Shown here: positions 17,022 to 64,000 of the stretch, piece after piece
Position numbering within the stretch: position 1 is the stretch's first letter
Layout: every line of letters starts with the position of its first letter
From: an uncultured Clostridia bacterium
Lineage (GTDB): Bacteria > Bacillota > Clostridia > Christensenellales > Aristaeellaceae
DNA length: 64,000 nucleotides
Direction of reading: 5' to 3'
NCBI GenBank assembly: GCA_946187775.1
Contig: CAMHSI010000001.1
Span: forward strand, 20,988 to 84,987
Made by a program: the position numbers and the translations under genes
Notes under the pieces: model-generated
Databases searched by the model: none
What the model was told of the DNA's origin: nothing
Seen by the model: only the letters and a program-made list of their open reading frames with translations

Positions 17022-19907
17022 ATGAGGAAAAAGGCCGAAAAATTGCTGTCAGTTCTGCTGGCTTTGCTGTTTTTTCCGTTGGTCGGAACCGGAACGGCGG
17101 AGGAAACGGAAAACTGGATGATGTTTTCCAGCAGGACGGAGCCCTATTACAGCGAGTACCGGAAAGGCCTGACGGCGGAGACGTACAGGGGGGAAGAGAT
17201 TGCAGCCTCCATGGACCGGACGCTCCAGACGGGGGATACGGCGGAGGTTACCCTGACGGTGACGGAAAAGGCGCTGTATGAAGTCTGGATCCAGTACCGG
17301 ACGGAGACGCAAAGCGCCCTGCCCAGCGAGATGACCGTGCGGATTGACGACGCCATTCCCTTCTATGAACTCAGGAGGGTCAAGCTGAAGGCGGAGTGGA
17401 AGGATGACGGGGTCTTCCCGCTGGACCGCTACGGGAATGAAATCGCCACCACCCCGACGGCCCAGCCGGTGATCCAGGAGGCAGGCATGACTGACAGCGC
17501 AGGCTGGACGGACGGTCCCTTCCGGATTGAGCTGGAGCCCGGCGAGCACACCTTTGCCCTGGAGGTCCAGGAAGGCGCCCTCTGGATCGGGAACATCAGC
17601 CTGCGGGCGGGAGAGGAAGTTCCTGCGTACGCGGGAGAGACCGCCGAAGGGGATGGGCTGATTTCCATCAGCGCCGAAAAGATCGACACCAGGAACAAGA
17701 GCAGCATCCGGGCTGCCGGCGAATTTGACGTGAACCTGACCCCCTACGAGACGGATCACCGCAGGATGAATTTCCTGGACGGCGCCAGCTTCGACACCGC
17801 GGGGGATGAGGTCCGCTGGCGCTTTACCGCCGAAAAGGAAGGCTGGTATTACCTGTCCATGAATTACCGGCAGAGCGTGAAGGCGGATTTCCCGGTGTTC
17901 GCGGACGTGCTGATTGACGGGAAGGTGCCGAGCGCCGAGGCGGCCAGGGTACCCTTTGATTACCAGACGGGATTTGAAACCCGGACCGTGAACACCTCCG
18001 CAGGGGAGAAGCAGAGCTTTTTCCTGACCGCGGGCGAGCATACCATCGGCCTGCGGATCAGCGGGGAAAACCTGAGCCCGGTGTATGACGTGATCAACCG
18101 GGTGCTGGGAGAAATCAACGGACTGAGCCTGGAGGTCGTACGGCTGACCGGGGGAATCACTACGGACCGGTACCGGGATTATGAATTGCTGACCTATATC
18201 CCGAACCTGGTGGAGATCCTGACAGGCTGGGCGGATGAACTGGACGCGACGGTGGATTCCATGAAACAGTATTCCTCCAGCGGAAGCGGCAGCGCCTTCA
18301 GCAACCTGACCCTGGCGGCGGACCAGCTCCGGAGGCTGGCGGAAAAACCGGAGGATCTGCCCCGGCGCCTGAGCGAGCTGAGCACCGGCAGCAACAGCGC
18401 AAGCCGGATGCTGGCACAGCAGCTGCAGGATATCGCACAGAACGATCTGAGCATTGACGAGATCTGGCTCTGGCAGGAGGGAGCCACCCTGCCCGGGAAA
18501 AAGAGCTTCCTGCAGTCCACGGCGGAAGGAGTCAACCGCTTCGCCCGCAGCTTCGGAAACCAGGATTACGCGGCCGGAACCGGGAAGGAAGGCCATCTCC
18601 AGGTGTGGATGGGCCGCAGCCGCCAGTACGTGGAGCTGGTGCAGAATATGATTGACGCGGAGTTCACGCCGCAGACCGGCATCGAGGTGGACCTGGGCAT
18701 TATGCCGGACGCCAACAAGCTGGTGCTGGCCAACGCCGCCGGAACAGCCCCGGACGTGGTACTGAGCCTGCAGTATGTGGTTCCCAGCTACCTGAATATC
18801 CGCGGTGCGCTGTACGACCTGACACAGTTTGAGGATTTCGGCGAGGTGGCGCAGCGTTTCAGCAGCGGCCTGTTCATCCCCTACATCCTGGGGGACGGGG
18901 TGTACGCCATGCCGGAAACGGTCAACTTCTGGGTGCAGTTTTACCGGAAGGACATCCTGAACGCGCTGAACATCGAAGTGCCGGACACCATGGAACAGGT
19001 AAAGATGATCCTGCCTGAGCTGCAGCGCCGGAACATGAACTATTACTTCCCGACAGCGGGCATGGTGGGTATGAAGGTCTTTCCGGGAACCCTGCCGCTG
19101 ATCCTGCAGAACGGCGGCAGCATCTACGCGGATACGGTCGGGGATACAACGCTGGACAGCGAGGAAAGCCTGAAGGGCTTCCGGGAAATGACGGACCTGT
19201 TCACCGTGTACAACATGCCGACGGATGTGCCGGCACCCGGCTTCTACCAGCAGTTCCGGGACGGAACCCTCCCCATCGGCATCGCCGACCTCGCGACCTA
19301 CAACCTGCTGCTGAACGCGGCACCGGAGCTGGACGGCATGTGGGAGATCAGCCTGTTCCCGGGAACCAACGGAACCCGCTGGACCACAGGAGGCGCCGAA
19401 ACCATGGCGATCCTGAGCCAGACAAAGATGCCGGAGGAAAGCTGGACCTTCCTGAAATGGTGGAGCAGCACCGAGGTCCAGAGCCGGTTCGGGAACCTGC
19501 TGCAGAGCACCTACGGCAGTGAGTACATCTGGCCCACGGCCAACCGGGAAGCCTTTGAGAGCCTGCCCCTCAAGGCGAAGGACAAAAAGGTGATCCTGGA
19601 GCAGATGAAATGGATGACCGAGGCTCCCTGGGTACTGGGAACATACATGCTGGAGCGGGAGCTGAGCAATGCCTTCGTCAGCGTGGTGGTGGACGGAACG
19701 GACGCCAGGCGGGCGCTGGATACGGCAGTAAAAAGAATCAATCGCGAGACCTACCGGAAGCTGGAGGAATTCGGATACTACAAGGACGGAGTCATGGTCC
19801 GCGAATTCCCGACGCCCACAGTCCGGGTGGTGGAAAAACTGATTGAGGCGGCTCGGCAGAAAAACGGAAACGGGACGACCGAGGGAGAGGAGGGAGCCGG
19901 CCGGTGA
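17022..19907 (+). CDS. Giant extracellular solute-binding protein (N-terminal CBM-like beta-sandwiches and helical region; C-terminal family 1 SBP)
   Basis: Signal peptide; two beta-sandwich repeats ending LEPGEHTFAL and LTAGEHTIGL; SBP motifs AGTAPDV, YAMPET and FYRKDIL. Confidence 0.85.
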   Translation: MRKKAEKLLSVLLALLFFPLVGTGTAEETENWMMFSSRTEPYYSEYRKGLTAETYRGEEIAASMDRTLQTGDTAEVTLTVTEKALYEVWIQYRTETQSALPSEMTVRIDDAIPFYELRRVKLKAEWKDDGVFPLDRYGNEIATTPTAQPVIQEAGMTDSAGWTDGPFRIELEPGEHTFALEVQEGALWIGNISLRAGEEVPAYAGETAEGDGLISISAEKIDTRNKSSIRAAGEFDVNLTPYETDHRRMNFLDGASFDTAGDEVRWRFTAEKEGWYYLSMNYRQSVKADFPVFADVLIDGKVPSAEAARVPFDYQTGFETRTVNTSAGEKQSFFLTAGEHTIGLRISGENLSPVYDVINRVLGEINGLSLEVVRLTGGITTDRYRDYELLTYIPNLVEILTGWADELDATVDSMKQYSSSGSGSAFSNLTLAADQLRRLAEKPEDLPRRLSELSTGSNSASRMLAQQLQDIAQNDLSIDEIWLWQEGATLPGKKSFLQSTAEGVNRFARSFGNQDYAAGTGKEGHLQVWMGRSRQYVELVQNMIDAEFTPQTGIEVDLGIMPDANKLVLANAAGTAPDVVLSLQYVVPSYLNIRGALYDLTQFEDFGEVAQRFSSGLFIPYILGDGVYAMPETVNFWVQFYRKDILNALNIEVPDTMEQVKMILPELQRRNMNYYFPTAGMVGMKVFPGTLPLILQNGGSIYADTVGDTTLDSEESLKGFREMTDLFTVYNMPTDVPAPGFYQQFRDGTLPIGIADLATYNLLLNAAPELDGMWEISLFPGTNGTRWTTGGAETMAILSQTKMPEESWTFLKWWSSTEVQSRFGNLLQSTYGSEYIWPTANREAFESLPLKAKDKKVILEQMKWMTEAPWVLGTYMLERELSNAFVSVVVDGTDARRALDTAVKRINRETYRKLEEFGYYKDGVMVREFPTPTVRVVEKLIEAARQKNGNGTTEGEEGAGR

Positions 19908-20788
19908 TTACGAAAAAAAAGACACCTTATCTGTTTCTGCTTCCTTATCTGATTCTTTTTACCGTGTTCATCATCATTCCGACGGTGATGGCCGTGGGAC
20001 TGAGCTTTACCAACTACAACGCGGTGCAGACCCCCTCCTTTGTAGGACTTACAAATTACATCAACCTGCTGACCCAGGACACCATCTTCCTGCAGTACGT
20101 CCTGCCCAACACGATCCTGTTCAGCCTGGTGGTGGGCCCCGTCGGATACATGCTGGCGTTCTTCCTGGCCTGGAGCCTGAGCCAGCTGACGAAGCTGCCG
20201 CGGACGATCCTGGCGCTGATCCTTTACAGCCCCAGCATGACCATGGGCGTCGCGATGACCGTCATGTGGCGGGTGGTATTCCTGGGCAACCAGAGCGGTA
20301 TCGCCAACTATGTGCTGACCCAGCTGGGCGTGATCACGGAGCCCATCGTCTGGATGCTGAATACCAATTACATTATGCCCATCGTGATTATCGTGGCATT
20401 GTGGGGAAGCATGGGAGTCGGATTCCTGGCGATGCTGGCCGGCCTGCTGGACGTCAACCCGGAGCTGTATGAGGCAGCGGCGATTGACGGCGTGAAGAAC
20501 AGGTTTCAGGAAGTGTTCTATATTACGATTCCCAGCATGAAACCCCAGATGCTCTTCGGCGCGGTTATGAGCATCGTCAACGCCTTCCAGGCGGGTAACA
20601 TCGGCGTGATGCTGACGGGCAGCAACCCGACGCCCCAGTACGCGGCGCAGCTGATGACCAACCATATTGAGGATTACGGATTCACCCGGTATGAGATGGG
20701 ATACGCGGCGGCAGTCAGCGTCGGGCTGCTTGGACTGATCTACGCATTCAGCTTTGTGGCGCGGATGCTGTTCAGCGAAAAGGAGTGA
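19904..20788 (+). CDS. Carbohydrate ABC permease (MalF-type) 1
   Basis: FVGLTNY and EAA loop ELYEAAAIDG; about 6 TMs. Confidence 0.93.
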   Translation: MITKKKTPYLFLLPYLILFTVFIIIPTVMAVGLSFTNYNAVQTPSFVGLTNYINLLTQDTIFLQYVLPNTILFSLVVGPVGYMLAFFLAWSLSQLTKLPRTILALILYSPSMTMGVAMTVMWRVVFLGNQSGIANYVLTQLGVITEPIVWMLNTNYIMPIVIIVALWGSMGVGFLAMLAGLLDVNPELYEAAAIDGVKNRFQEVFYITIPSMKPQMLFGAVMSIVNAFQAGNIGVMLTGSNPTPQYAAQLMTNHIEDYGFTRYEMGYAAAVSVGLLGLIYAFSFVARMLFSEKE

Positions 20789-20794
20789 TGGAAG

Positions 20795-21664: not shown

Positions 21665-21677
21665 GGAGGGAAAAGGA

Positions 21678-23717
21678 GTGAAAAAAAGGATCCTGATCCT
21701 GATGCTCCTGTGCCTCCTGCTGGTATCCGCCGTCGGGGCGCAGGCATCCACGCCTTACCGGACGTTTACCCTGGGCGTGAACAAGGAGCTGGTGGAAACG
21801 CAGACGGCCTATGAGCCGGTGCGGAGCATGATCCGTTTCGGGGAGGAGACCCTGAAAGATCCTCAGGACCTGAGGATGGGAAAGGACGGAAACCTCTATA
21901 TTGCCGATACGGGCAACAAGCGGGTTCTGGTGGTTACCCGGGAGGGCGAACTGATCCGGGAAATCAAGGACAAGAAGAACATGAAAACGCCCAGCGGCGT
22001 AAACGTGGACGAGGAAGGCAACATCTACGTTGCCGACGAGAGCAGCCGGGCGGTGCTGGTGTACAACAAGGAAGGCACCCTGATCCGGACCTGGGGACGG
22101 CCGACCCACCCCCTCTTCGGGGAAACGGCTCCCTATAAGCCCAGGAAGGTCGTAATCGACAAGCGGGGGAACCTGTACATCTCCAGCAAGGGCAACACCA
22201 ACGGCATCGTGCAGCTGAGCCCTGCCGGGGAGGGAGAGTTCCTGGGCTACTACGGCGCGAACACCTCCAGCGTCAGCTTCCTGACGGCAATCCGGAAAGC
22301 CATCTTCTCGGAAGAGCAACTGTCCGGTATGGCGGGAATCATCCCCATCAGCGTGGAGAACCTGTGCATTGACGATAAGGGAATGGTTTACGCGGTCAGC
22401 CAGACCAACGACGAGCGGAGCCTGCGGCGGCTGAACGTGGCCGGGCGCAACACGATGGTTCCGGACTTCTGGACGGAGCTGACCACCGCGGTGGCGGTGT
22501 CGGAGGGCGGAAGCGTCTTCACGGCCAACGCCAACGGGCGGATCGTGGAATACACCTCGGAAGGAGACATGCTGTTCGTCTTCGGAGCCTTTGACAGCGG
22601 AGACCAGCGGATCGGAACCTTCAAGAGCGTGACGGGCATGGTGGCGGACGAGGAATACCGCCTGTACGTCCTCGACAGCGTGCTTGGAAGCATCCAGGTG
22701 CTGGAGCCGACGGAATTCACCTCCCTGGTGCACACCGCCTTCACCCTGTTCCAGAACGGTAAATACGAGGAAAGCAAGACCCCCTGGGGACAGGTGCAGC
22801 GGATGAACAGCCTCTTCACCTACGCCAATACGGGCATGGGCGAGGCGCTGTACCGGGAAGGGGAATACCAGGACGCCCTTACCAACTTCCGCAACAGCGG
22901 CAACCGGCAGGGGTATTCCGACGCCTGGTGGGAGCTGCGCAGCGACTGGCTGCACAGCCATGTAGGCCTCATCCTGATCCTGCTGGCAGCCCTGGTGGTG
23001 GTCTGGCAGGGACTGAAGCTGCTGAACCGGAAGACCCGGGTGCTGGCGCCTGCGGGCAAAGCCCTCCGGAAGATCGGGGACATCCGGATCCTGAACCAGA
23101 CCGGTTACTGTTTCCGGATGCTGAAGAATCCCTACGACTGCTGCTACGGGATCAAGCGGGAGAACCGGGCGTCCATCCTCAGCGCGGTCATTGTGCTGGT
23201 GCTGGTGTTTATCCTCATCGAAATCAGCAAATACTTCAGCGGATTCCTGTTCAAGACGGTTCAGGAAGGCCAGTATGAGGTGCTCAACGACGCGATCATG
23301 TTCTTCGGCGTATGGGCGCTGCTGGTGATCTGCTGTTACCTGGTCTGCACGATCAAGGAAGGTGAAGCGAGGTTCAGGGACCTGTTCATTGGCGCGTCCT
23401 ACGTGCTTACCCCGATGCTGGTCTTCCTGCCGATACGGATCCTGCTGACCAACGTGCTGACCTTCAACGAGGCGTTCTTCATCACGCTGATCGATGTGGT
23501 CAGCTACGGATGGACGGGACTCCTGGTGGTGCTGATGATCATGTACCTGAATGATTACAGCTTCAAACGGACGCTGGTCATTCTCATCCTTACGGCCTTC
23601 ACGGTGCTGATCGTGGCGGCACTGGGATTTGTGATCTGGGTCCTGGTGAACCAGCTGATTAACTTTGTTTCCGGAATTTACGGAGAGGTGGTGTATCGCT
23701 TTGTCAGGAGGACGTAA
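21678..23717 (+). CDS. NHL-repeat beta-propeller + TPR-like helices + YIP1-like membrane domain fusion
   Basis: Signal peptide; NHL repeats (GNLYIADTGNKRV, GNIYVADESSRAV, GNLYISS); TPR-like ANTGMGEALYREGEYQDAL; TM; then LKNPYD and about 5 TMs. Confidence 0.8.
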   Translation: MKKRILILMLLCLLLVSAVGAQASTPYRTFTLGVNKELVETQTAYEPVRSMIRFGEETLKDPQDLRMGKDGNLYIADTGNKRVLVVTREGELIREIKDKKNMKTPSGVNVDEEGNIYVADESSRAVLVYNKEGTLIRTWGRPTHPLFGETAPYKPRKVVIDKRGNLYISSKGNTNGIVQLSPAGEGEFLGYYGANTSSVSFLTAIRKAIFSEEQLSGMAGIIPISVENLCIDDKGMVYAVSQTNDERSLRRLNVAGRNTMVPDFWTELTTAVAVSEGGSVFTANANGRIVEYTSEGDMLFVFGAFDSGDQRIGTFKSVTGMVADEEYRLYVLDSVLGSIQVLEPTEFTSLVHTAFTLFQNGKYEESKTPWGQVQRMNSLFTYANTGMGEALYREGEYQDALTNFRNSGNRQGYSDAWWELRSDWLHSHVGLILILLAALVVVWQGLKLLNRKTRVLAPAGKALRKIGDIRILNQTGYCFRMLKNPYDCCYGIKRENRASILSAVIVLVLVFILIEISKYFSGFLFKTVQEGQYEVLNDAIMFFGVWALLVICCYLVCTIKEGEARFRDLFIGASYVLTPMLVFLPIRILLTNVLTFNEAFFITLIDVVSYGWTGLLVVLMIMYLNDYSFKRTLVILILTAFTVLIVAALGFVIWVLVNQLINFVSGIYGEVVYRFVRRT

Positions 23718-25929
23718 GATCATCTGCGTGATGCTTGCCCTGCTGCTGGCCGCGATGCCCCTCTGGCTTGCCGCCGGAGAGGAGGCTCCCCAGGTTCAGG
23801 ACGCGGAGACGGCTGCGGAAAGTGAAGCCGTCCGTGAGGACACGATCCCTGCGGAATACGAGAAAATTGCGGAAAACAGCCGGTTCAACCTGTACCTGAG
23901 GCGGGACACCCTGGCGCTGATCGCGGAGAGCAAAAACAGCGGGAAGGTGCTTTACTCAACGGTACAAAATCCGGACGAAATGAAGGATAACGCAACCTGG
24001 AAGGGCTTTTACCAGAGCGGAATCGTCATGGAATACCTGGAGGGCGTCAAGAGCCTTCCCCTGCAGGCGGATTTCATCAATACCGCCAGCGAGATCGACC
24101 TGAAGCTGACAGGGGACGGGTACGAGGCGGAGGTCCTCTATCCGGAGATCGGCATCAGCTACAGCGTAGCCCTGAAGATGGACGAGCGCGGGTTCAGCGT
24201 AAGCATCCCGAAGAGCGGCATCCGGGAATCGGATCCGGAAAACTTCACCGTGTCCGGATTCTATGTCTACCCCTTCATGGGATACAGTTACCTGGGGCAG
24301 GACGACGGATACATGATCATCCCGGACGGACAGGGAGCGATCATCGAACTGAAGGACAACGAGGAACGGTACCAGAGTCCCTTTGACCGGGCGGTGTACG
24401 GCACCAACATCGGCATTGAGGACACGGTGTACAGCGACTGGGGCGTCAGCGCGGAGCAGGTGCTGCTGCCGGCCTTCGGCATGGTGCACGAGGACGACCA
24501 GATGGCGGTGCTGGGCTTCATTGAGAACGGGGACGCCGCGGCAAGGATCCAGGCGTACCCCAACGGGGTCCGGATGAAATTTGACTGGGTCTGCGCCCGG
24601 TACCTGTACCGGATGGTTTACAGCCAGCCCACCGGGCCGAATTCCTCCACCATCAGCATGCGCACGGAATATGCCCGGGAAATTGACATTGTGCAGCAGT
24701 TCCTGCTGGAGGAAGGCGAAACCGCCAATTACGCCGGCCTGGCCACCGCCCTGCGGGACTATATGACGGAAAAGGGGTATTTCGGCGAGGCGGAAACCGG
24801 GAACTTTGATATCGCCGTTGACTTTATCGGCGCGGAAACGGAAAACTTTGTGCTGGGAAAGCAGAGCGTCGTCATGACCTCCTTTGACCAGGCGGCCGAG
24901 ATCCTGAAGGAGCTCGGGAGCCGTGACGTGCACGAAATCAACGTGACCTACCGCGGCTGGCAGGAGGGCGGACTGATCGGAGCCCTGCCGACGGACGGAT
25001 ACAAGCCGGCGGGGGCCCTGGGCGGAGACAGCGGCCTGCAGCGGCTGAAGAGCGCTGCGGAAGGGCAGCGGGACAGGCTCAGCCTGGAGGCAGACTTCCT
25101 CCGCCTGAACACGGAAACCCATCCGCTGCTGTTTTATTCCAGCTTCAAGAAGATCACCAGCCAGACCTGGAAACGGCCTACCTTCGGCAAGGTATACGAC
25201 ACCCTGTACGCCCTGACGCCGAAAAAAAGCCTGGAGATCGGAAGAAACACCGTCCGGGAGCTGAGCGGGCACGGAATCGGCGGGATCACCCTGACGGGCA
25301 TTCCCACGCTGATGAGCGACTGCTACGAGGACAACCATTACCAGGATTCCACCAAGGTCATGAAAGCCTATGAGACCCTGGTGAAGGAAAGCAGCGAGCA
25401 GATGGAAACCATGCTGGAAAAGGCGAACTGCTACCTGTGGCGGTATGCGGCGGCCCTGAAGAACATGCCCATTGCCTGCTCGGATTACACCTATGTGAAG
25501 CGGGAAATCCCCTTCCTGGCCATTACGGTCAGCGGGAAGATTCCGTACTATACGGAATATGTCAACTTTCAGGCCAACACGACTAAATTCTTCCTCCACC
25601 TGGTGGAGCAGGGAACCCGTCCGACCTTCCTGATTACGGCGGAGGATCCCATCAAGCTGCAGAACACCAACAGCAACGATATCTACAGCGCGAAATGGGA
25701 TATGTACCAGGAGATGATTCCCCAGTGGTACGCGGAACTGAAGCAGCTGCATGAGGTGATCGGAAAGGCCCAGATTACCGGCCACACTTTCCGGGGAGAA
25801 CTGGTTCGGGTGGACTGGTCCAACGGCGTCCGGGTGTACGTGAACTTCGGCAGACAGGCAGCCGAAATGGACGGGGTTGCAGTGGAAAAAACCTCATATG
25901 TTATCCTGCAGGGGGGTGAACAGCCGTGA
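23701..25929 (+). CDS. DUF5696-like secreted protein
   Basis: Signal peptide; GYMIIPDGQGAII, LPAFGM and YRGWQEGG; position after the YIP1 gene; TTG 23701 preferred over 23665. Confidence 0.75.
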   Translation: MSGGRKIICVMLALLLAAMPLWLAAGEEAPQVQDAETAAESEAVREDTIPAEYEKIAENSRFNLYLRRDTLALIAESKNSGKVLYSTVQNPDEMKDNATWKGFYQSGIVMEYLEGVKSLPLQADFINTASEIDLKLTGDGYEAEVLYPEIGISYSVALKMDERGFSVSIPKSGIRESDPENFTVSGFYVYPFMGYSYLGQDDGYMIIPDGQGAIIELKDNEERYQSPFDRAVYGTNIGIEDTVYSDWGVSAEQVLLPAFGMVHEDDQMAVLGFIENGDAAARIQAYPNGVRMKFDWVCARYLYRMVYSQPTGPNSSTISMRTEYAREIDIVQQFLLEEGETANYAGLATALRDYMTEKGYFGEAETGNFDIAVDFIGAETENFVLGKQSVVMTSFDQAAEILKELGSRDVHEINVTYRGWQEGGLIGALPTDGYKPAGALGGDSGLQRLKSAAEGQRDRLSLEADFLRLNTETHPLLFYSSFKKITSQTWKRPTFGKVYDTLYALTPKKSLEIGRNTVRELSGHGIGGITLTGIPTLMSDCYEDNHYQDSTKVMKAYETLVKESSEQMETMLEKANCYLWRYAAALKNMPIACSDYTYVKREIPFLAITVSGKIPYYTEYVNFQANTTKFFLHLVEQGTRPTFLITAEDPIKLQNTNSNDIYSAKWDMYQEMIPQWYAELKQLHEVIGKAQITGHTFRGELVRVDWSNGVRVYVNFGRQAAEMDGVAVEKTSYVILQGGEQP

Positions 25930-27921: not shown

Positions 27922-29352
27922 ATGAAGAAAATCCTGGCACTCATCCTGACCCTGGCAATGCTGATCGGCGTTGTGTCCTTCGCAGGCGCGGAAGGAACCT
28001 ACAACATGCCCGAAATGAACACGACAGACCCGATCACCCTGACCTTCATGACCTGGGACGATTTTGAAATGACCGAAGCCCTGGCCAAGAAGTTCATGGA
28101 AAAGTATCCGAACATTACGGTTGAAGTGATCCGCACCACCACGGCTGACGTGGCCGGCGAGCTGCTGAACCGCGCTGCCACCAACGACCTGCCGGACGTG
28201 TATTTCTGGCTGGACCTGGAGCCCCTGATGGCCAGCAAATACATGTACGACATCACCGAGTACATCGAGAACGATGAGGAAGCCCAGACCAGCCTGTACG
28301 ACACCCTGAAGCGGGTCGGCTACCTGGATGGAAAACGCTGCTACTTCATGGCCGGTGAATTCCTGCCCGCCACCGTGTACTGCGACGCCAACGTTTTCGA
28401 GAAGATGAACGTGGAACTGCCTGCCCAGGACTGGAAATGGGAAGACATGCTCGCTCTGATCGACAAGCTGGCGGATCCGTCCCAGGGCTACTGGGGACAT
28501 TTCGGCGGCATGTACAGCTATGTGACCCAGGGACCGCTCTCCCTGACCAGCAACGCCATCGGCGAATTCGGCTGGGACGGCGAGAAGTATGACTTCTCCT
28601 CCGGCTGGGTGGACGCTGTTGAAACCATGATTGAAAACAACCGTCTGGGCAAGGACCTGAACGTCACCTCCGATGAGTATGTGGCTTTGAACCTGGGCGA
28701 CGAGTGGGGCGGCCAGACCGGCCATGTGGGCATTGTGACCGACGCCTTCTGGACCCTGAACAATATCTACACCAAGCCCATCTGCCTCGACCGCGGCACC
28801 AAGATGATCCCCTACAACCCGCCGTTAGGCGCGGACGCCGAGAATGCCGCCCAGCTGGCCTTCCTGGATATGTATTCCATCTCCGCCACCTGCGAGCATC
28901 CCCGCGAGGCTTATGAACTGGCCAAGTACCTGACCTGGGGCAAGGAAGGCTGGCTCGAGCGGATCAAGCTGTTCCCTGAAATCACCTGGGAAGCCACCGG
29001 AGAAAAGGCTTATGACGTTCCCAACTGCCTGCCGATGGTTACGGACGAAGAAGTGGTTGCCAAGTATGTCGAGCTGATGCCCGACCTGGGATACTGGAAC
29101 GACTGGGCTGCCTTCATGGACGGCATCCAGAACCCCGTGACCTGGGGCAGCCGCACGATTCCCGGCTTCGCTTCCTTCGTGAACAATTACTATCATGGCT
29201 CCGACTATAACGGAACCGTGGGTATCGAAGCCGCCATCGCTGCCGGCACTGTGGATCCCTATGACTATACCGATATCCTGGCGGAAGCCGGACGGAAGTA
29301 CTACGACGAAGCTATGGAAGTTTTCTACGGCGTATACGGAAAGCCCGAATAA
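27922..29352 (+). CDS. Sugar ABC solute-binding protein (family 1)
   Basis: Signal peptide, ITLTFMTW, LPDV, DWKWEDML and EHPREAYEL; start moved to ATG 27922 after AGGAGG. Confidence 0.88.
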   Translation: MKKILALILTLAMLIGVVSFAGAEGTYNMPEMNTTDPITLTFMTWDDFEMTEALAKKFMEKYPNITVEVIRTTTADVAGELLNRAATNDLPDVYFWLDLEPLMASKYMYDITEYIENDEEAQTSLYDTLKRVGYLDGKRCYFMAGEFLPATVYCDANVFEKMNVELPAQDWKWEDMLALIDKLADPSQGYWGHFGGMYSYVTQGPLSLTSNAIGEFGWDGEKYDFSSGWVDAVETMIENNRLGKDLNVTSDEYVALNLGDEWGGQTGHVGIVTDAFWTLNNIYTKPICLDRGTKMIPYNPPLGADAENAAQLAFLDMYSISATCEHPREAYELAKYLTWGKEGWLERIKLFPEITWEATGEKAYDVPNCLPMVTDEEVVAKYVELMPDLGYWNDWAAFMDGIQNPVTWGSRTIPGFASFVNNYYHGSDYNGTVGIEAAIAAGTVDPYDYTDILAEAGRKYYDEAMEVFYGVYGKPE

Positions 29353-29448: not shown

Positions 29449-31416
29449 GTGGGCAGAATGCTGACGGCCCTGGCGGCGGCAGCGGTGCTCCTGCTGCAGG
29501 CGGGAGCGGGAACGGGGGAAACCCTGACTGTCGACCCGGCCCGGCCGGTTCATGGGATCAGCCAGACCCTGTACGGCCTCTTTTTTGAGGATATCAACCA
29601 CGCCGCGGACGGCGGGCTGTATGCGGAGCTGCTGCAGAACCGGTCCTTTGAATATGAGGAGCTTCTCAATCCCGCCCCGCACCAGCACCTGACAGGCTGG
29701 GCTTTCAATATGGGGACGGGAAAGGGACAAATCGGGATCAGCACGGAGGATCCGCTGAACGAAAACAACAGGACCTACATCCGCCTGGACGCGGAGGACG
29801 GCTACGCCTTCCAGAACCTGGGCTGGGGCCAGAGCGCCTTCCGGGGCGGGATTCCCGTCCGAAAAGGGGAGCTGTATGACGTCAGCGTATGGCTGAGGAG
29901 CGTTTCCCCGGGGGAAAGCGCCCAGAAGATCGCCGTGTCCCTGACGACCAGGGCCGGGGCAGGCTTAAGCAGCGAGGTTGTTTTTGAGCCCGGCGGCAGC
30001 TGGAAACGGATGGAGGCGGTGCTGGAGGCCTCGGAGACCGCGGAGGACGCCTGCCTCAGCTTCCGGGCCGTCGGGACCGGGGAGACGGATGTGGACATGG
30101 CGTCGCTGATGCCCCGGGACCGGATCGGCGCGGAATGGCCGGGCGGAGGCATGCGCCGGGACCTGGTGGAGGCGCTGGCAGAGCTGCATCCCGCATTCCT
30201 GCGGTTCCCCGGAGGATGTGTCACGGAGGGATCCTGGGTATGGGAGAACCTGTACCGCTGGAAGGACACTGTCGGACCGGTGGAAGAACGGAAGGAAAAC
30301 TGGAACACCTGGGGATATATGCAAAGCTACGGCATCGGCTTCTATGAATACTTCTGCCTGTGCGAGGAAATCGGAGCCCTGCCCCTGCCCGTGGTGGGGA
30401 GCGGAGTGCTCTGCCAGGCCAGGGAACCCGCGGAAAGCCCCATGAACGAGGAGAAGCTGGCGGAGTGGACCCGGGATGTGCTGGACCTGGTGGAATTCGC
30501 GAAAGGAGACGCCGGAACCGAATGGGGAGCCCTGCGGGCCGCCATGGGGCATGAGGAGCCTTTTGACCTGCGCTTCCTGGCCATCGGGAACGAAAACTGG
30601 GCGAATATCTATTTTGACCGGTATGAAAAAATCCGGAACGCCGTGAAGGAGGCCTGGCCGGAGATTACCTGCGTCGTGGCCAACGGCCCCGTGGCGGACG
30701 GATCCCTGTTCAGTGCCGGCCGCAGCACGATCCTGCGCCGCTTCCCGGAGGACCTGGCGGATGAGCATTACTACATGGACAGCGGCTGGTTCCTGAAAAA
30801 CACCCACCGGTACGACCTCTATCCCAGGAGCAGCGGGGTATTCCTGGGGGAATACGCAGCCCATGAGAGCGCCGCCGGAGGGCGCAGGCCCAACAACCTG
30901 TACAGCGCGCTGTGCGAAGCCGCGTACCTGACCGGCATCGAAAGGAACAGCGATGTGGTGCGGATGTGCTGTTACGCGCCGCTGCTGGCGCGCCAGGGAA
31001 TGGATCAGTGGACACCGGACCTGATCTGGTTTGACGGCACCAGGGTCCTGCGCACGCCGAACTACTATATCCAGCAGATTTTCTCCGGATCCCTGGCGGA
31101 GGAGCTTATTGAGAGCCGCTGGATAACGGAAGGAGCGGACCCCGATCCGGAGCGGGAAGGGCTGTACCAGACCGCCGGAAGGAAAAAGGACGGAACGGTA
31201 TATATCAAGATCGTCAACGTATCCGGGGAGGAACGGGAAATCCGGGTAACGGATCCGGAGGGAAATCCCCTGGCCGGAAGGATGACGGTGCTGTCCGGAG
31301 AACGGCAGGCGGTCAATACCCTTTCCGAAGAAAAGGTGAAGCCGGAGGAGACGGCATTTGAAGGTTCCGCCGCCTTTCCGGGATACGCGGCGGCAGTGAT
31401 TGAAATCCGCCCGTAG
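29449..31416 (+). CDS. Secreted GH51 alpha-L-arabinofuranosidase with CBM-like insert
   Basis: Signal peptide; YGLFFEDINHAADGGLYAELLQNRSFE, LRFPGGC, AIGNEN, FLGEYA and YAPLL. Confidence 0.92.
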   Translation: MGRMLTALAAAAVLLLQAGAGTGETLTVDPARPVHGISQTLYGLFFEDINHAADGGLYAELLQNRSFEYEELLNPAPHQHLTGWAFNMGTGKGQIGISTEDPLNENNRTYIRLDAEDGYAFQNLGWGQSAFRGGIPVRKGELYDVSVWLRSVSPGESAQKIAVSLTTRAGAGLSSEVVFEPGGSWKRMEAVLEASETAEDACLSFRAVGTGETDVDMASLMPRDRIGAEWPGGGMRRDLVEALAELHPAFLRFPGGCVTEGSWVWENLYRWKDTVGPVEERKENWNTWGYMQSYGIGFYEYFCLCEEIGALPLPVVGSGVLCQAREPAESPMNEEKLAEWTRDVLDLVEFAKGDAGTEWGALRAAMGHEEPFDLRFLAIGNENWANIYFDRYEKIRNAVKEAWPEITCVVANGPVADGSLFSAGRSTILRRFPEDLADEHYYMDSGWFLKNTHRYDLYPRSSGVFLGEYAAHESAAGGRRPNNLYSALCEAAYLTGIERNSDVVRMCCYAPLLARQGMDQWTPDLIWFDGTRVLRTPNYYIQQIFSGSLAEELIESRWITEGADPDPEREGLYQTAGRKKDGTVYIKIVNVSGEEREIRVTDPEGNPLAGRMTVLSGERQAVNTLSEEKVKPEETAFEGSAAFPGYAAAVIEIRP

Positions 31417-33823: not shown

Positions 33824-35434
33824 ATGAAGAGAATCCTGGCTCTGGTACTGGCGCTGGCACTGATTGCCACGCTGGGCATCACCTCCGCCTTCGCGGCGGA
33901 CGAGGGTTTTGTGGACGGCAAGTTCACCGAGACCCGTCACATCACCGTGCGTCTTTTCCAGCGCGGTGACAACGTTCCCGAGACGTCCCCCTTCGCAGAC
34001 TACATCCGCAAGGGCATGCTGGAAAAGTACAACGTGGAAGTTGAATTTTCCGTGTGCGGCCGCTGGGATGACGAGACGGACCTGGGCAACCTGCTGGCCG
34101 CCCAGAACGCTCCCGATGTCATCTACACCTACGCCTATCCCACGATCCTGAACTACGCCGACATGGGCGGCATCATCGACCTGGCTCCCTACATCGAGGA
34201 GTACAAGGACCTGCTGCCGAATATGTTCAACCTGCTGGGCGAAGAAAACGTCTACTGGGACAAGGATCCCGAGACCGGCAAGCTGTGGGCGCTGGAAACC
34301 CGCCTGGTCAACAATGCCCGCATCAACACCTTCATCCGCAAGGACTGGCTGGACAAGCTGAATATGCCCCTGCCCACCAACAAAGCCGAGTTTGAAGCCT
34401 GCCTGATCGCCTTCCGCGACAACGCCGAGACCCTGCTGGGCGCGGATGCTGCCAAGATGGTTCCCTACAGCACCAGCCAGGATATCGGCTGGCGGAACAA
34501 CAACCTGACGGTGTCCTTTGTGCCGGACGCCATCACGGACGAAGAGCTCTACATCCGCGGCTTCGATGACAGGCAGCAGTTCCTGCCCGGCGCCAAGGAA
34601 GCCATGCGCCTGCTGAACAAGTGGTACAACGAAGGCCTGGTCTGGAAAGACTTCGCCCTGTACGGCAGCGGCGACACCACCGAGGATGACAACCTGAAGG
34701 CCGGTTTCGTGGGTGCCTTCCAGCACAACTATGACTATCCCTACCGCAACGGCGACGACTCCATCGAAGCGAACCTGAAGCGCAACGTAGGCCCCGAGGC
34801 CGAGTTCGTGGCTGTGGACTGCTTCGAGAATGACGCCGGACTGTACCGCAAGTACCTGGGCAGCACCGTGGACCGGAAGGTTTGCTTCCCCACCACGAAT
34901 GACGAAGTGCTGGCCAGCCTGCTGTACCTGGACTTCATCTCCTCCCCGGAGACCATCCTGGCCCTGCAGACCGGTACCGAAGGCATCAACCATGAGCGCA
35001 TGGAAGACGGCGCTTACAAGATGCTGGTTGTGGATCCCACAGATCCGAACTACCAGGCCAGCCTGAACAACATCGACTTCACCATGACCTGCAACGGACA
35101 GTACCTGGGCGAATACACCGAAGCGAGCTTCGCCTACGGCTACGCTCCCGTGGATCCGGAAGTGGTTCTCAACGCCCTGAAGGTTGCCAAGAATGACGGC
35201 CGCGTTCCCAAACACTTCAGCCTTCCGGCCATCGAAGCGGAAGTCGGCATCGGCAGCACGCTGTCCGAAGAGCGCGACAAATTCCTGAACCAGGCTGTGA
35301 CCGCTCCCGTTGAAGAGTTTGACGCGGTTTATGACGCCGGTGTTGCAAACTACATGGCGATCGGCGGCGAAGCGATCATGAATGAGCGCGCCGAGAAGAT
35401 CGAAGCGGCGACCGGATACAAGTTCGAGAAGTAA
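33824..35434 (+). CDS. ABC solute-binding protein (LplA-type, oligosaccharide)
   Basis: Signal peptide; APDVI and FIRKDWLDKLNMPLPT; RBS AGGAGG; strongly biased codon usage. Confidence 0.9.
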   Translation: MKRILALVLALALIATLGITSAFAADEGFVDGKFTETRHITVRLFQRGDNVPETSPFADYIRKGMLEKYNVEVEFSVCGRWDDETDLGNLLAAQNAPDVIYTYAYPTILNYADMGGIIDLAPYIEEYKDLLPNMFNLLGEENVYWDKDPETGKLWALETRLVNNARINTFIRKDWLDKLNMPLPTNKAEFEACLIAFRDNAETLLGADAAKMVPYSTSQDIGWRNNNLTVSFVPDAITDEELYIRGFDDRQQFLPGAKEAMRLLNKWYNEGLVWKDFALYGSGDTTEDDNLKAGFVGAFQHNYDYPYRNGDDSIEANLKRNVGPEAEFVAVDCFENDAGLYRKYLGSTVDRKVCFPTTNDEVLASLLYLDFISSPETILALQTGTEGINHERMEDGAYKMLVVDPTDPNYQASLNNIDFTMTCNGQYLGEYTEASFAYGYAPVDPEVVLNALKVAKNDGRVPKHFSLPAIEAEVGIGSTLSEERDKFLNQAVTAPVEEFDAVYDAGVANYMAIGGEAIMNERAEKIEAATGYKFEK

Positions 35435-54118: not shown

Positions 54119-55204
54119 TTACTGGGCGGCCATGACCTTCGTCCAGCGGTGATTCAGTTCTCCCGCCAGGTCGGGAAGATCCACATAGATCTCATCCGCC
54201 GCATAACCGGCCCGGGGCATATACGCGGAATTGCCTTCATAGGTTCCGCCGGGGCCGTAGAGCTCCTCCAGCACCTGGGCGTTGGGGGAAGCATAGCCGG
54301 TGTAATCGGAGATGAGCAGGCTGGATTCATATTCGGTGACGTGGCGGATAAACAGGTTGGCCAGGCGCGGGTTGCCGGCGTTCGCAGGGATGACCATCGC
54401 GTCCACGGCAATGTTGGTGCCCTGCCAGGGAGCGCAGAAGGCCATGTCCTCATTTTCGCTGATGATATAGGCGATATCGCCGCTGTAGCCCAGGGAAATC
54501 CACTTCAGGCCTTCCGCCATACCATCGATCATTTCATCCGTCACATAGGACGGGTCGATGGTCCGGTGCATGTTCAGCAGCCATTCGTTGGCGGCGTCAA
54601 TCTCCTCCAGGTTTTCCGAGTTGGCGGAATACCCCAGGGATTTCAGCGCGATCATGAAGGCGTCCCGGGCGGAATCGTACATATAGGCATGTCCCTTGAT
54701 GGAGGGATCCAGGAAGATCTCCCAGCCTTTTTCCTCTACCAGTGCCGGATCCAGCTTGGTGGTATCATAGACGATGCCGACGCTCTGCCAGAGATAGGGA
54801 ACGGAATAGGTGTTGTCCGGGTCAAAGGCAAGATTCCGGACCGGCTCCGCCAGGTTGTCCAGGTTGTCGATGATGGACTTGTCCAGGGGCTGGAGGCGCT
54901 TTTCCTTGATGAGGCGCTCGATCATGTAATCGCTGGGCACCAGGATGTCCCAGGGATCGTCGCCGCCCAGGAGTTTGGTATACAGCGTTTCGTTGGAATC
55001 ATAGTTCTTGTAGTTGATCTCGCAGTTGTATTTCTTCTTGAAACTCTCGAGAACCTGTTCATCTTCGTCGATATAGGAGCCCCAGTTGAAAACGTTGAGC
55101 ACGGCTCCGTGGAAGTCTTCGACGACATCCTCTGCGCCTGCGAGGACGGGGAACACCAGGGAAACCAGGACGAGGGCCATCAGGGCGGACAGGATTTTTT
55201 TCAT
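54119..55204 (-). CDS. potD: Spermidine/putrescine-binding protein
   Basis: LNVFNWGSYID, YDSNETLY, PSDYMI, YSVPY and YSGD. Confidence 0.92.
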   Translation of the reverse strand: MKKILSALMALVLVSLVFPVLAGAEDVVEDFHGAVLNVFNWGSYIDEDEQVLESFKKKYNCEINYKNYDSNETLYTKLLGGDDPWDILVPSDYMIERLIKEKRLQPLDKSIIDNLDNLAEPVRNLAFDPDNTYSVPYLWQSVGIVYDTTKLDPALVEEKGWEIFLDPSIKGHAYMYDSARDAFMIALKSLGYSANSENLEEIDAANEWLLNMHRTIDPSYVTDEMIDGMAEGLKWISLGYSGDIAYIISENEDMAFCAPWQGTNIAVDAMVIPANAGNPRLANLFIRHVTEYESSLLISDYTGYASPNAQVLEELYGPGGTYEGNSAYMPRAGYAADEIYVDLPDLAGELNHRWTKVMAAQ

Positions 55205-58371: not shown

Positions 58372-58383
58372 GGGAATCCCTCC

Positions 58384-58917: not shown

Positions 58918-58938
58918 CTCGGAGCCCTCCTTCCGGCC

Positions 58939-58955
58939 GTTTAGAATTACTAAAC
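58939..58955. promoter_or_regulatory. Candidate operator of the pot operon regulator
   Basis: Inverted repeat GTTTAG-N5-CTAAAC between the promoter (minus strand TTGCAA-N16-TATAAT, about 58985-59012) and the RBS. Confidence 0.55.
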
Positions 58956-59033
58956 AATTAGGGAAGAATAATTAAACCGGAATCATTATACATATTTTCC
59001 GCCCCGTTGCAATAGGAACCGGAAATTTTCCGC

Positions 59034-59059
59034 AAAAAAAACCGGCGGAAAACCGCCGG
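59034..59059 (-). terminator. Terminator of the esterase gene
   Basis: A run plus ccggcgg-aaaa-ccgccgg. Confidence 0.75.
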
Positions 59060-59086
59060 AGGAAAAACGAAACAGGAAGGGGTCCG

Positions 59087-60679: not shown

Positions 60680-60751
60680 CACAAGGTACCTCCGGTTGTA
60701 AATCGGTTCGGTCAAATTCCAAGGCCATCATACCATCTTCCGGCTTTTTTT

Positions 60752-61855
60752 TCAATCTTCGCTGCCGACCTGGAAGGAAACCACAGCGCCTTCCGCGTCG
60801 TTCCAGGCTCCGGGATCGTATCCGGTGGACTGCTTCATCTTCTTCAGCACCCGTTCCGCGTCCGTTCCGGAAAGCAGGCGCGGGGAGTAATTGTTGTAGT
60901 GGGAGTCGCTGGTGACCGAAATGGGATAAAAATGCAGGTCCACCCGGTCCAGGGCGCCCCCGGTGAAATGGAGCACCGCCTGCAGGGCCAGGGCGTCCAG
61001 GTCCTTCGGCCGGGTGTTGCCGCCGAAAACGCAGTTCCCCAGGCTGTAAACCACGGGAACCCCCTGCAGCACCGTGTATCCCTGCACGACGTGGGGATGA
61101 TGGCCGACGATCAGGTCGCTGAGAGGAACGGCGCGGTTTGTGATCTGCCGCTGGTAGGAATCCGGGGGCTCCGTGCTGTACTCGGTGCCGGCGTGCATGA
61201 CCGTGATGACCGCGGCGCAGCCCATCTCCCGCAGCAGCTCCGCCTGCTTTTTGAACTGGTTGTACCGGTTTCCGGAGAGGTTGCCGTTGACTCCCAGGAA
61301 CCCGATGCGCAGGCCTTCGCTGTTTTCCCAGACCGCGGGGGCTTCCGCGGCGAACCAGCAGATGCCGGCGGCGTCCAGCGCCTCTTTGGTATCCGCGTAG
61401 CCTTCCTTTTTATAGTCCATGGTATGGTTGTTAGCCAGGGTCACACATTCCACGGATCCCAGCTTCAGGATTTCCGTGTAGGCGGTGGGACCGGAGAAGT
61501 TGTACTTCTTTTTTTCCTTTTTCAGCTTCCGGTCCGTCAGCACCCCTTCCAGGTTGGCCACCGTGAGATCGTCCTGCTCCGTCAGCTGCTTCAGCTCCCG
61601 GAAGGGAAAATCCGGGCCGTTTTCGGCGATGCGCGCGGCAAAGTCAATCTTCGGATACCGGGAGGGGGATTCCCCGCCCAGGGTGCAGTCCCCCAGGAAG
61701 GTGACGCGGACCTCCCCGGTATATTCGGAGGCCGGCCGGAGCAGGTCCTCCCCGGAAGGCTCCACGGAAACCGTCCGCAGGGTTCCTTCCCCCAGGGCGC
61801 AAGAGGACAGCAGCAGCATCAGGGACAGGAAAAAACAGCATTTCTTCATGATCAT
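60752..61855 (-). CDS. CapA family exported metallophosphoesterase-like protein
   Basis: FLGD, ANLEG, LANNHTMDY, MHAGTE, VGHHPHVVQ and YSLGN. Confidence 0.9.
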   Translation of the reverse strand: MIMKKCCFFLSLMLLLSSCALGEGTLRTVSVEPSGEDLLRPASEYTGEVRVTFLGDCTLGGESPSRYPKIDFAARIAENGPDFPFRELKQLTEQDDLTVANLEGVLTDRKLKKEKKKYNFSGPTAYTEILKLGSVECVTLANNHTMDYKKEGYADTKEALDAAGICWFAAEAPAVWENSEGLRIGFLGVNGNLSGNRYNQFKKQAELLREMGCAAVITVMHAGTEYSTEPPDSYQRQITNRAVPLSDLIVGHHPHVVQGYTVLQGVPVVYSLGNCVFGGNTRPKDLDALALQAVLHFTGGALDRVDLHFYPISVTSDSHYNNYSPRLLSGTDAERVLKKMKQSTGYDPGAWNDAEGAVVSFQVGSED

Positions 61856-61939
61856 TCTACCTTTCGCATGATGATCCGGCCCAGGGACGGAACTTTCTCA
61901 GTGTAGCACGAAAACAAAAAAATGGGAAACCGGGTTCCC

Positions 61940-61956
61940 TTTAAGGTTATTTTAAG
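61940..61956 (+). promoter_or_regulatory. Candidate OmpR-family response-regulator direct repeat
   Basis: TTTAAG-N5-TTTAAG (11-bp period) followed after 9 bp by GATAAT. Confidence 0.55.
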
Positions 61957-62035
61957 TTTCCGGAGGATAATAAGGACTGCCGGAGGGAAAAACCGGCAAA
62001 GGATATGAAAACGACGCAGGAAGAAGGGAAGACAA

Positions 62036-63523
62036 ATGATGAAGAGATTGATCGCGGTTATTCTTTCCGTGATGATGATTTTTGCCATAAGCCTGTCTGC
62101 TTACGCGGAGGATACAGGAACCCCGCCGGAGATGCCCTCCGGCAGCATGACGCCGCCGGACGGCGGAAACGGTCAGCCCCCCGAACCGCCGGACGGCGGA
62201 AACGGCCAACCCCCCGAACCGCCGGAAGGCGGCATGCCCAGCGGAACCCCTCCGGACGGGACGCCCGGCGGCTTCGGCGGTGGAACGCCTCCCGGAGGCG
62301 GATCCGCGGCATCCGTTGAATATACGGCAGCTGCGGAGATCACGGAAGCCGCCGAACAGTCCGGGGAAACCTACACCTCGGAGACCGCGAATGAAAACGC
62401 GCTGCTGATCAGCACGGCGGAAGCCGTTACCCTCACCGAGCCCACGGTGACCAAGACCGGCGACTCCGACGGCGGGGACAGCTGCAACTTCTACGGCCTG
62501 AACGCGGGCATCCTGGTCAAGGGCGGCTCCGTGACGACCATCACCGGCGGCACCGTTGAAACGAGCGCCTCCGGAGCCAACGGCGTGTTCTCCTACGGTG
62601 GAAACGGCGCCATGAACGGCGGCGAGGGAGACGGCACCACCGTGGTGATTTCCGACACCGTCATCACCACCACCGGGGACGGCTCCGGCGGCATCATGAC
62701 CACCGGCGGCGGCACCACCCTGGCCAGCAACCTGACGGTGAACACATCCGGGCGCTCTTCCGCGGCGATCCGCACCGACCGCGGCGGCGGAACCGTTGTC
62801 GTGGACGGCGGCAGCTATACCACCGGCGGGCTGGGTTCCCCGGCCATCTACTCCACGGCGGATATTACCGTGAAGAACGCGACCCTGACATCGAACCTGT
62901 CGGAGGGGGTATGCATTGAGGGAATGAATTCCATTACCCTGGAGAACTGCGACCTGACCGCCAGCAACACGCAGCGCAACGGAAACGCCACCTTCCTGGA
63001 TACCATCATGATTTACCAGTCCATGTCCGGGGACGCGGACAGCGGAACCTCCTCCTTCACCATGACGGGAGGCAGCCTGACGAGCCTGAGCGGCCATATG
63101 TTCCATGTGACCAACACCCACGCGGTGATCACCCTTTCCGGGGTGGAGCTGGTGAATTCCGGCAGCGACGTGCTCCTTTCCGTGTGCGATGACGGATGGA
63201 ACGGCGCCGGCAACACCGCGGAGCTGATCGCGGACGGCCAGGCCCTGGCCGGAACGATCCTGGTGGGAGACAACTCCAGCCTGACCCTTACCCTGAAGAA
63301 CGGATCCGCCTTCGAGGGGACCATCGGCGGAGAGATTGAAAACGCAAAGGGTGAAACGGTATCTTCCGAAACCGGCACGGTGTCCGTGGTGCTGGAGGAT
63401 ACCTCCACCTGGACCCTGACGGCGGATACCAGCATCACCTCCTTCCAGGGAGACGCCGGAAACATCATCAGCAACGGATATACCCTGTATGTGGACGGTA
63501 CTGCCCTGCAGGGAACAAACTGA
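62036..63523 (+). CDS. Secreted Gly/Thr-rich right-handed beta-helix protein with Pro/Gly linker
   Basis: Signal peptide AYA|ED; NFYGLNAGIL, SAAIRTDRGGG, SPAIYST and IMIYQSMSGDA; autotransporter-passenger-like end WTLTADTSITS. Confidence 0.78.
   Translation: MMKRLIAVILSVMMIFAISLSAYAEDTGTPPEMPSGSMTPPDGGNGQPPEPPDGGNGQPPEPPEGGMPSGTPPDGTPGGFGGGTPPGGGSAASVEYTAAAEITEAAEQSGETYTSETANENALLISTAEAVTLTEPTVTKTGDSDGGDSCNFYGLNAGILVKGGSVTTITGGTVETSASGANGVFSYGGNGAMNGGEGDGTTVVISDTVITTTGDGSGGIMTTGGGTTLASNLTVNTSGRSSAAIRTDRGGGTVVVDGGSYTTGGLGSPAIYSTADITVKNATLTSNLSEGVCIEGMNSITLENCDLTASNTQRNGNATFLDTIMIYQSMSGDADSGTSSFTMTGGSLTSLSGHMFHVTNTHAVITLSGVELVNSGSDVLLSVCDDGWNGAGNTAELIADGQALAGTILVGDNSSLTLTLKNGSAFEGTIGGEIENAKGETVSSETGTVSVVLEDTSTWTLTADTSITSFQGDAGNIISNGYTLYVDGTALQGTN
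62153..62233 (+). repeat. 33-bp coding tandem repeat (PPDGGNGQPPE x2.5)
   Basis: Units at 62153-62185 and 62186-62218, plus a partial unit at 62219-62233. Confidence 0.9.
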
Positions 63524-63585
63524 CAGCAGCATACGGAACCCGGGAGAATTAACGGCGGAAGAGAAGGAATCCGGCAGGGGGAAAG

Positions 63586-63614
63586 GGAACTTTTTCACGG
63601 GAGGAAACGTCTGA
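63586..63614 (+). promoter_or_regulatory. Candidate ECF-sigma promoter of the SIMPL gene
   Basis: GGAACTT-N16-GTCTGA. Confidence 0.55.
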
Positions 63615-63658
63615 AAGAGTGAGAACCCGAAAGGGAAGAAAGAGAGGAGATTGTTCCC

Positions 63659-64000
63659 GTGAAACAAAATATGATTAAGCGGATGACCGCGCTGGTGCTG
63701 GCCCTCCTGCTGCTGGCCGCTTCCGCGGCCGCGGCGGAAACGAAGATTTCCGTTACCGGAACAGGAGAAACCCGGGTGGCGGCGGATACCGCCGTGATCA
63801 CCCTGGGAGTCAACGCCCGGGACCGGGAGGTCCAGAAGGCCCAGCAGGCGGTGAATGAGCGGATCGCGGCCATCCGGAAGGCCCTGGCGGACCAGGGAAT
63901 CCCGGAGGAGAACATCAACACGGATTTCATGAACATCTATGCCATCTACGATTATGAAAAGGACCAGGAGCAGGTGCAGGCCTACAACGCCAGCTCCACC
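63659..64000 (+). CDS. SIMPL (DUF541) domain exported protein, 3' truncated (absent from ORF track)
   Basis: Translated by hand: MIKRMTALVLALLLLAASAAAAETKISVTGTGETRVAADTAVITLGV...GIPEENINT; GTG 63659 after GAGGAG, or in-frame ATG 63671. Confidence 0.88.
   Translation, partial: MKQNMIKRMTALVLALLLLAASAAAAETKISVTGTGETRVAADTAVITLGVNARDREVQKAQQAVNERIAAIRKALADQGIPEENINTDFMNIYAIYDYEKDQEQVQAYNASST

Follow-up and report, generated by a model that had tools for sequence, protein, structure and literature searches.

The 64,000-nucleotide stretch analyzed here (the window; contig CAMHSI010000001.1, C1:20988-84987) comes from an uncultured Clostridia bacterium of the family Aristaeellaceae, order Christensenellales. 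The source genome (G000) is 64% complete with 60% GC. The window encodes four solute-binding proteins (SBPs), each preceded by a plausible ribosome-binding site, and all four begin with a signal of the signal peptidase I (SPase I) type that contains no cysteine. The first is the 961-residue SBP of an NHL/Yip1-DUF5696 module (17022–19907, + strand), with a 26-residue signal (17022–17099) that ends in GTGTA/EETE, the predicted cut being GTA/EE. A family-1 sugar SBP (27922–29352, + strand) has the junction SFAGA/EGTY (cut AGA/EG), and a probable oligosaccharide SBP encoded behind two permeases (33824–35434, + strand) has SAFA/ADEG (cut AFA/ADE). The fourth is the polyamine SBP PotD (54119–55204, − strand), with VLAGA/EDVV (cut AGA/ED), which served as the marker for comparisons across the family, order and class. 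An earlier inspection of the letters alone (the sequence-only reading) had noted that none of the four has a lipobox cysteine, and their N-termini read exactly as it gave them. Pfam SBP families match three of the four. The SBP at 33824 had no match in the Pfam scan; it lies downstream of two ABC permeases, matches solved family-1 SBPs weakly (E ~ 4e-6), and is ~ 50% identical to a protein encoded at L273:7315 in G112, a one-contig genome from a distant genus within the family (2.27 of 2.67 Mb covered). Homologs of the 17022 SBP with 68–69% identity carry Aristaeellaceae names, PotD has close relatives in Clostridia of the rumen and gut, one of them titled Christensenellales, and one G112 protein has a homolog named Ca. 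Limiplasma; on the strength of these names the family compared here is taken to be Aristaeellaceae.

The absence of the lipobox extends over the genome. The G000 gene set comprised 1604 genes called with a model of its own, and exported proteins were picked by a heuristic rather than by SignalP. SBPs were collected by four Pfam searches and by BLAST, for which 39 SBPs of G112 confirmed by Pfam served as queries, a procedure that may miss SBP families not represented among the seeds. The census gave 38 rows, two of which lacked an N-terminus, and one SBP from a separate search brought the total to 37. SPase I-type signals are present in 35 of these, each with a small residue followed by an acid within one or two residues. 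Clear lipoproteins (LLSAC/HG and MLTGC/GK) account for 2 of 37; a lipoprotein majority genome-wide, which would have refuted the sequence-only reading, was thus not found. A congener (G002) has 24 SPase I-type SBPs and two lipoproteins among 26 readable loci, four of 30 having been dropped for a wrong frame or start. In G112, 38 of 39 SBPs are SPase I-type, the remaining one, a Bmp protein, looks like an uncleaved anchor, and one further probable SBP without a Pfam match is a lipoprotein. In contrast, 41 of the 45 readable SBP-domain proteins in three genomes from other families of the order are lipoproteins (nine control rows, which held LacI-type regulators or were read in a wrong frame, were set aside). 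Other protein types that are usually anchored in Firmicutes, namely LCP, MsrAB, DctP, ZnuA, Bmp and PrsA paralogs, also carry SPase I-type signals here.

PotD was matched in 140 of 151 genomes of the family, and 40 loci from 39 genera were read: 35 are SPase I-type and five are lipoproteins. Outside the family, the best-scoring loci, spread over 15 sister families, have a lipobox in 26 of 26 cases. A single PotD was also read for each of 16 other clostridial families, which yielded 14 lipoproteins and two SPase I-like signals. The latter two (L372 in G301 and L379 in G315), which lack a lipobox and belong to two families outside the order, may represent more lineages with the switch. Five genera have a lipoprotein PotD but failed as a natural control, as their other SBPs are SPase I-type in 18 of 20 cases. 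The trait is thus a property of the whole family, absent from the sister families, and single genes flip. Two of the in-family lipoprotein PotDs (L155 in G046 and L168 in G060) have very long tethers of Glu, Pro, Ala and Thr, ~ 65 and ~ 117 residues in length. Family PotDs are ~ 30–40% identical to the lipoprotein orthologs of sister families. In a PotD tree built by a quick method the labels cluster and the lipoprotein PotDs nest within the family, with midpoint rooting and paralogy leaving the order of events unset. Related genomes are not independent, and the counts therefore describe perhaps one evolutionary switch rather than many. The possibility that the pattern is an artefact of heuristic signal calling or wrong start sites has practically negligible probability. 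The calls were indeed heuristic and a few rows were misparsed by the script; nonetheless, the same procedure recovers a lipobox in 26 of the 26 PotD controls and in 41 of the 45 SBP controls, and most family sequences contain no cysteine in their first 40 residues.

The processing enzyme is present throughout, SPase I (PF10502) being found in 77 of 77 genomes, including all 50 family relatives searched, which rules out its loss. The G000 enzyme (C12:29208-30182) contains a ~ 100-residue insertion in its catalytic domain, whereas the G112 enzyme has none. The cleavage rule was examined on those exported proteins, picked by the heuristic, in which the first residue to carry a charge is Asp or Glu. 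Alanine directly precedes the first acid in 115 of 148 G000 proteins (background 0.18, p = 2e-55) and in 65 of 127 G112 proteins (background 0.13), and the (−3,−1) rule is satisfied in 137 of the 148, with ~ 64 expected. With a median uncharged stretch of 20 residues, length alone does not exclude a membrane anchor. The position of the domain relative to the junction is more telling. In the PF13407 sugar SBPs the domain begins 26–77 residues past the cysteine in sister-family lipoproteins (n = 11, one misparsed control row left out) compared with 2–6 residues past the cut in G002 (n = 4); in five G112 members it begins at residues 27–32. The median distance from anchor or cut to domain is 26.5 residues in PF00497 lipoproteins versus 10.5 in the family, and nine residues in lipoprotein PotDs versus three in SPase I-type PotDs (four rows misparsed). 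The sister-family tether is rich in Ser, Thr, Ala and Glu, and both it and the lipobox are absent in about nine of ten family SBPs. The first strand of the SBP fold starts away from the binding cleft, and for that reason an anchor two residues from the domain would be expected to hinder docking to the permease. On these sequences tether loss is a stronger argument against anchoring than signal length, and we infer that the signals are cleaved in vivo.

The sequence-only reading had offered, as one of two options, that the signal peptides stay uncleaved and serve as N-terminal membrane anchors. Such anchors would suit the 20-residue median stretch, which is enough to span the membrane, and could be reconciled with the insertion in the G000 SPase I and with the anchor-like Bmp protein of G112. 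However, SPase I is present in every family relative searched, alanine at −1 and the (−3,−1) rule are under strong selection, and no tether separates the would-be anchor from the domain. Because of these three features the uncleaved anchor is disfavored, and we regard it as very unlikely.

That reading had also pointed to an acidic mature N-terminus shared by exported proteins. The feature is strong in G000, where 137 of 182 exported proteins have a small residue followed by an acid, but weaker in the other genus (85 of 163 in G112), and the PotDs of lipoprotein families are equally acidic. The mature PotD has a pI of ~ 4.2 whether anchored or not, and a special acidity of the mature proteins was thus ruled out. 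Avoidance of positive charge after the signal is a general feature of Sec export. The acidic N-terminus is therefore real, looser elsewhere, and probably not a targeting motif.

A stereotyped Ala/Glu-or-Asp junction could nevertheless expose a new N-terminus that is anchored again after cleavage, either through N-acylation, for example by divergent Lgt-like proteins, or through an L,D-transpeptidase link to peptidoglycan. The latter has a precedent in Brucella outer-membrane proteins, whose Ala-Asp N-termini are linked to peptidoglycan by L,D-transpeptidase. Genomes of this genus contain several divergent Lgt-like genes each, and five genomes of the family contain 3–8 YkuD-family transpeptidases (counted inside the family only). 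However, the +1 residue varies among Glu, Asp, Gln, Ala, Ser and Thr, and little more than half of the G112 junctions are acidic. The GRWGN signature has lost its Asn in the Lgt-like paralogs, which adjoin NAGPA genes, and in several genera with SPase I-type PotD these paralogs were not found, apart from one match. Judging by the known fold, a cluster-B SBP held by a two-residue link to its first strand would also be unable to reach its permease. Re-anchoring is accordingly considered unlikely.

The divergent Lgt-fold membrane proteins (314–352 residues) form an expanded set in their own right. They have lost the signature Asn and mostly adjoin genes for exported NAGPA phosphodiester glycosidases. 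Five of them are located in G000 (C2:62016-62963, C2:77974-79023, C8:116-1078, C54:6229-7173 and C61:7061-8119) and one in G112 (L273:2740-3696). G000 has nine NAGPA matches and its relatives have as many as 15, compared with 0–4 outside the family. The GRxGNFxNxExYG-type motif is important for Lgt; in 7 of 7 paralogs aligned with the canonical G112 Lgt its Arg is retained and its GN is lost. Together the Lgt-like and NAGPA proteins may constitute a lipid-linked glycan module in part of the family. The module was ruled out as the cause of the SBP switch, as it is expanded in part of the family only.

The lipoprotein pathway itself has been retained. LspA is present in G000, and canonical Lgt occurs in 18 of 24 congeners, including 8 of the 8 whose completeness reaches 90%; it was not found in G000 at its 64% completeness. 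Lipoproteins common to G000 and G112 comprise a PrsA-like protein, GerMN, a ribonuclease, a peptidoglycan-binding protein and one of unassigned family. The enzymes and conserved lipoproteins together ruled out loss of the pathway.

We consider it likely, on the sequence evidence assembled above, that the signals are cleaved and that the SBPs are soluble within a compartment that a non-canonical outer layer closes off. The SBPs would be exported via Sec with SPase I-type signals that lack both lipobox and tether, SPase I would cut the mature proteins free, and these would then diffuse in an enclosed periplasm-like space. The lipid anchor would be reserved for a few membrane-bound proteins such as PrsA-like and GerMN. 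The outer barrier would be made without the BamA, LPS, TolC or Mla genes tested, and may be a tight sieve of wall plus surface layer, that is, peptidoglycan coated by a protein or polymer whose anchoring does not involve SLH domains. We lean fairly clearly towards such a wall-plus-coat sieve over a second lipid bilayer. According to PMC12445088, which also describes an inner wall zone, B. subtilis peptidoglycan lets globular proteins of ~ 25 kDa through; the smallest SBPs in the census (245 residues) come close to this limit, which was counted in favor of enclosure. The periplasm-like compartment suggested by the sequence-only reading thus fits best, since lipobox and tether disappeared together while a few lipoproteins and their machinery remain, as in diderms; known outer-membrane and SLH S-layer genes were not found in the genomes searched.

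Several observations weigh against enclosure. The signal types behind it were assigned with our own patterns and by eye rather than by SignalP, five of the 35 G000 SPase I-type SBPs are ambiguous, with an upstream cysteine in a lipobox-like setting, and some lipoprotein SBPs have tethers of 5–9 residues, so short tethers do work. Gene searches identified no component of a barrier. BamA/Omp85 was found in 0 of 41 genomes, of which 25 belong to this genus and 16 to other families, by a search that was positive in 7 of 14 controls; LpxC, TolC-type OEP and MlaD were each found in 0 of 5 near-closed family genomes (1–3 contigs), and TagA in 0 of 4 family genomes. SLH had no match in G000, and no SLH-anchored S-layer was found. 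Thus, of the genes that the sequence-only reading had proposed to look for, lgt and lspA were recovered and BamA, LPS (LpxC) and SLH S-layer genes were missing from the genomes searched. Exported proteins of 150–185 residues also occur. Sortases were found in 33 of 41 genomes, two of them in G000, together with four PxTG-tailed proteins in G000, three of which exceed 1000 residues, and 4 of 6 pattern matches in G112 that look genuine. The claim that LPxTG, SLH and dockerin anchors are lacking consequently holds within the window but not in the genome elsewhere; for dockerins it rests on a Pfam scan of the window proteins, which gave none. Sortases and large PxTG-tailed proteins point to peptidoglycan that can be reached from outside and speak against a bilayer that seals off the wall completely. 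Corynebacterium, however, has both an outer bilayer and sortase-anchored proteins. Aristaeella species are reportedly described as having a Gram-negative-type wall. PMC12694931 gives Aristaeella as Gram-stain negative and non-sporulating, and the stain was counted in favor of enclosure. PMC11448272 describes Bacillota with outer layers yet no lpx or bamA, including the Gram-negative-staining Christensenella minuta. Staining Gram-negative in the absence of lpx and bamA is thus widespread among Bacillota and does not single out this family.

Scans for other surface structures gave little. The single weak SLH matches in 8 of 24 congeners sit at the end of a peptidase-like protein and were rejected as evidence of an S-layer. 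They belong to an ORF of ~ 1150–1300 residues with a C-terminal SLH-like segment (L026-L028 in G024, G001 and G018), which we take to resemble an M16 peptidase. No S-layer-type Pfam family was present among 155 exported G112 proteins scanned, and a codon-bias ranking for an S-layer gene was uninformative with three reference genes only. No outer-membrane Pfam family appeared among these 155 proteins or among 99 of 272 polytopic membrane proteins of G112, and a scan of the latter at E 1e-12 gave no LptFG, MlaE, LtaS or DltB; ~ 30 of these proteins had no match and 15% of the genome lay outside the coverage, so this is not proof of absence. Two exported proteins with Ig-like domains and no sorting signal, one with Big_6 (G112 L343:2297-3847 and G000 C21:7997-9589) and one with SdrD_B repeats (G112 L289:6013-8919 and G000 C29:7987-11697), are conserved between distant genera and are candidate surface-layer proteins.

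The failure to find barrier genes is what would be expected if the SBPs were released rather than enclosed, and retained by binding to permeases, wall polymers, capsule or biofilm matrix with some loss tolerated. Many wall enzymes with PG_binding_1 or SH3 domains, and the unanchored PotD in 2 of 16 other clostridial families, are consistent with this. However, none of the 39 G112 SBPs carries a wall-binding Pfam domain, and all SBP classes read have switched, across 39 genera or more; in the flow of the gut this would come at a high cost. We consider release without enclosure distinctly unlikely.

One protein was followed as a possible component of the enclosing layer. It is an exported G112 protein of 540 residues (L283:12267-13889) without a Pfam match, and its 110 full-length homologs all lack a lipobox. 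Its profile matched in 33 of the 50 family genomes searched, ~ 23 of these matches being strong, and in 0 of 29 genomes outside the family; the profile search did not find it in G000, and the G002 homolog lies ~ 3.5 kb from canonical lgt. Two further exported beta-rich proteins of 490–540 residues without a Pfam match occur in G112 (L283:14040-15614 and L304:8849-10309). The predicted model of the L283:12267 protein (pLDDT 88.5, pTM 0.88) is a meander of ~ 19 strands plus helices. In structural comparison outer-membrane barrels rank highest (Z 11.5, RMSD 5.4 over 217 residues), none of them standing out; the TM-scores are ~ 0.2–0.3, and the hydrophobic face of the model is uneven. A soluble lipid-binding groove would fit the model at least as well as a porin, and the protein is a candidate envelope component rather than a proven porin. 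That the Aristaeellaceae are independently evolved diderm-like Bacillota, with a periplasm sealed by a lipid outer layer without BamA or LPS and the beta-meander protein as its channel or lipid carrier, is possible but rather unlikely.

The arrangement resembles the free periplasmic SBPs of diderms, of the E. coli MalE and RbsB type, in the SPase I signal, the domain placed right after the cut, the small number of lipoproteins and the possession of Lgt and LspA. Free periplasmic SBPs are also known from Thermotoga, Halanaerobiales and Limnochordia. Unlike diderms, the family genomes searched gave no Omp85, LpxC, OEP or MlaD, and they encode sortases and PxTG-tailed proteins. With the monoderm Bacillota, here the sister families of Christensenellales and other Clostridia, the family shares the same SBP families, acidic mature domains and canonical Lgt and LspA, but about nine of ten of its SBPs lack the lipobox and tether. 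The mycomembrane of Mycobacteriales is a precedent for an outer barrier free of BamA and LPS that coexists with sortase-anchored proteins. However, the SBPs of Mycobacteriales remain lipoproteins, and MlaD/MCE was not found in the Aristaeellaceae genomes searched. The atypical Bacillota lacking lpx and bamA are alike in the Gram-negative stain and in the absence of detected LPS and BAM genes, whereas the SBP switch is confined to one family of the order; a term search of PMC11448272 found neither 'lipoprotein' nor 'binding protein', and its genome table may include Aristaeella.

No earlier account of the switch was found in the literature searched, a range that leaves out most subscription journals, and the family-wide departure from lipid-anchored SBPs is real and apparently undescribed. 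An entire abundant and culturable family breaks the rule of lipid-anchored SBPs in monoderm Firmicutes while its sister families keep it. The signal type would serve as a clean marker, readable from genomes, of a periplasm hidden in Gram-negative-staining Bacillota without LPS or BAM genes, and what encloses such cells becomes directly testable in Aristaeella cultures. The switch bears on the interconversion of monoderm and diderm envelopes and on private capture of oligosaccharides by rumen fiber degraders; since the cells would display few lipoproteins, it could also affect sensing by host TLR2.

The small-residue/acid junction of the SBPs recurs, as the sequence-only reading had noted, in six other exported proteins of the window. 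These are a DUF5696 protein with a TTG start (23701–25929, + strand; AAG/EE, SPase I-type), a GH51 arabinofuranosidase in which no wall anchor was seen (29449–31416, + strand; GTG/ET), a protein without an assigned family (42182–44674, + strand; ALA/DS), a CapA/PGA_cap protein (60752–61855, − strand), a beta-helix-like protein (62036–63523, + strand; AYA/ED) with a weak Beta_helix match (E 0.0013), and a SIMPL (DUF541) protein that runs past the window end (63659–64000, + strand; AAA/ET). Two caveats apply: the CapA signal is ambiguous, with LSSC followed by ALG/EG, and the 42182 protein is likely held in the membrane anyway because of two inner hydrophobic stretches at residues ~ 362–413. The junctions of a GH43 protein (A/SN) and of the NHL/Yip1 protein (A/ST) in the window are not acidic. 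Proteins of these kinds are often SPase I substrates in Firmicutes, and the non-SBP examples therefore add little.

The segment 40135–54065 (+ strand) is an operon-like run that encodes an exported membrane protein of unassigned family, an ABC transporter, a MoxR AAA+ ATPase, a DUF58 protein, a BatA/vWA protein and a vWA-GATase-like protein. Elsewhere in the family, G112 encodes a heliorhodopsin (L272:18262-19050) and a PelG/DUF2194 Pel-like exopolysaccharide cluster (L248:10166-14895) that adjoins a CotH lipoprotein.

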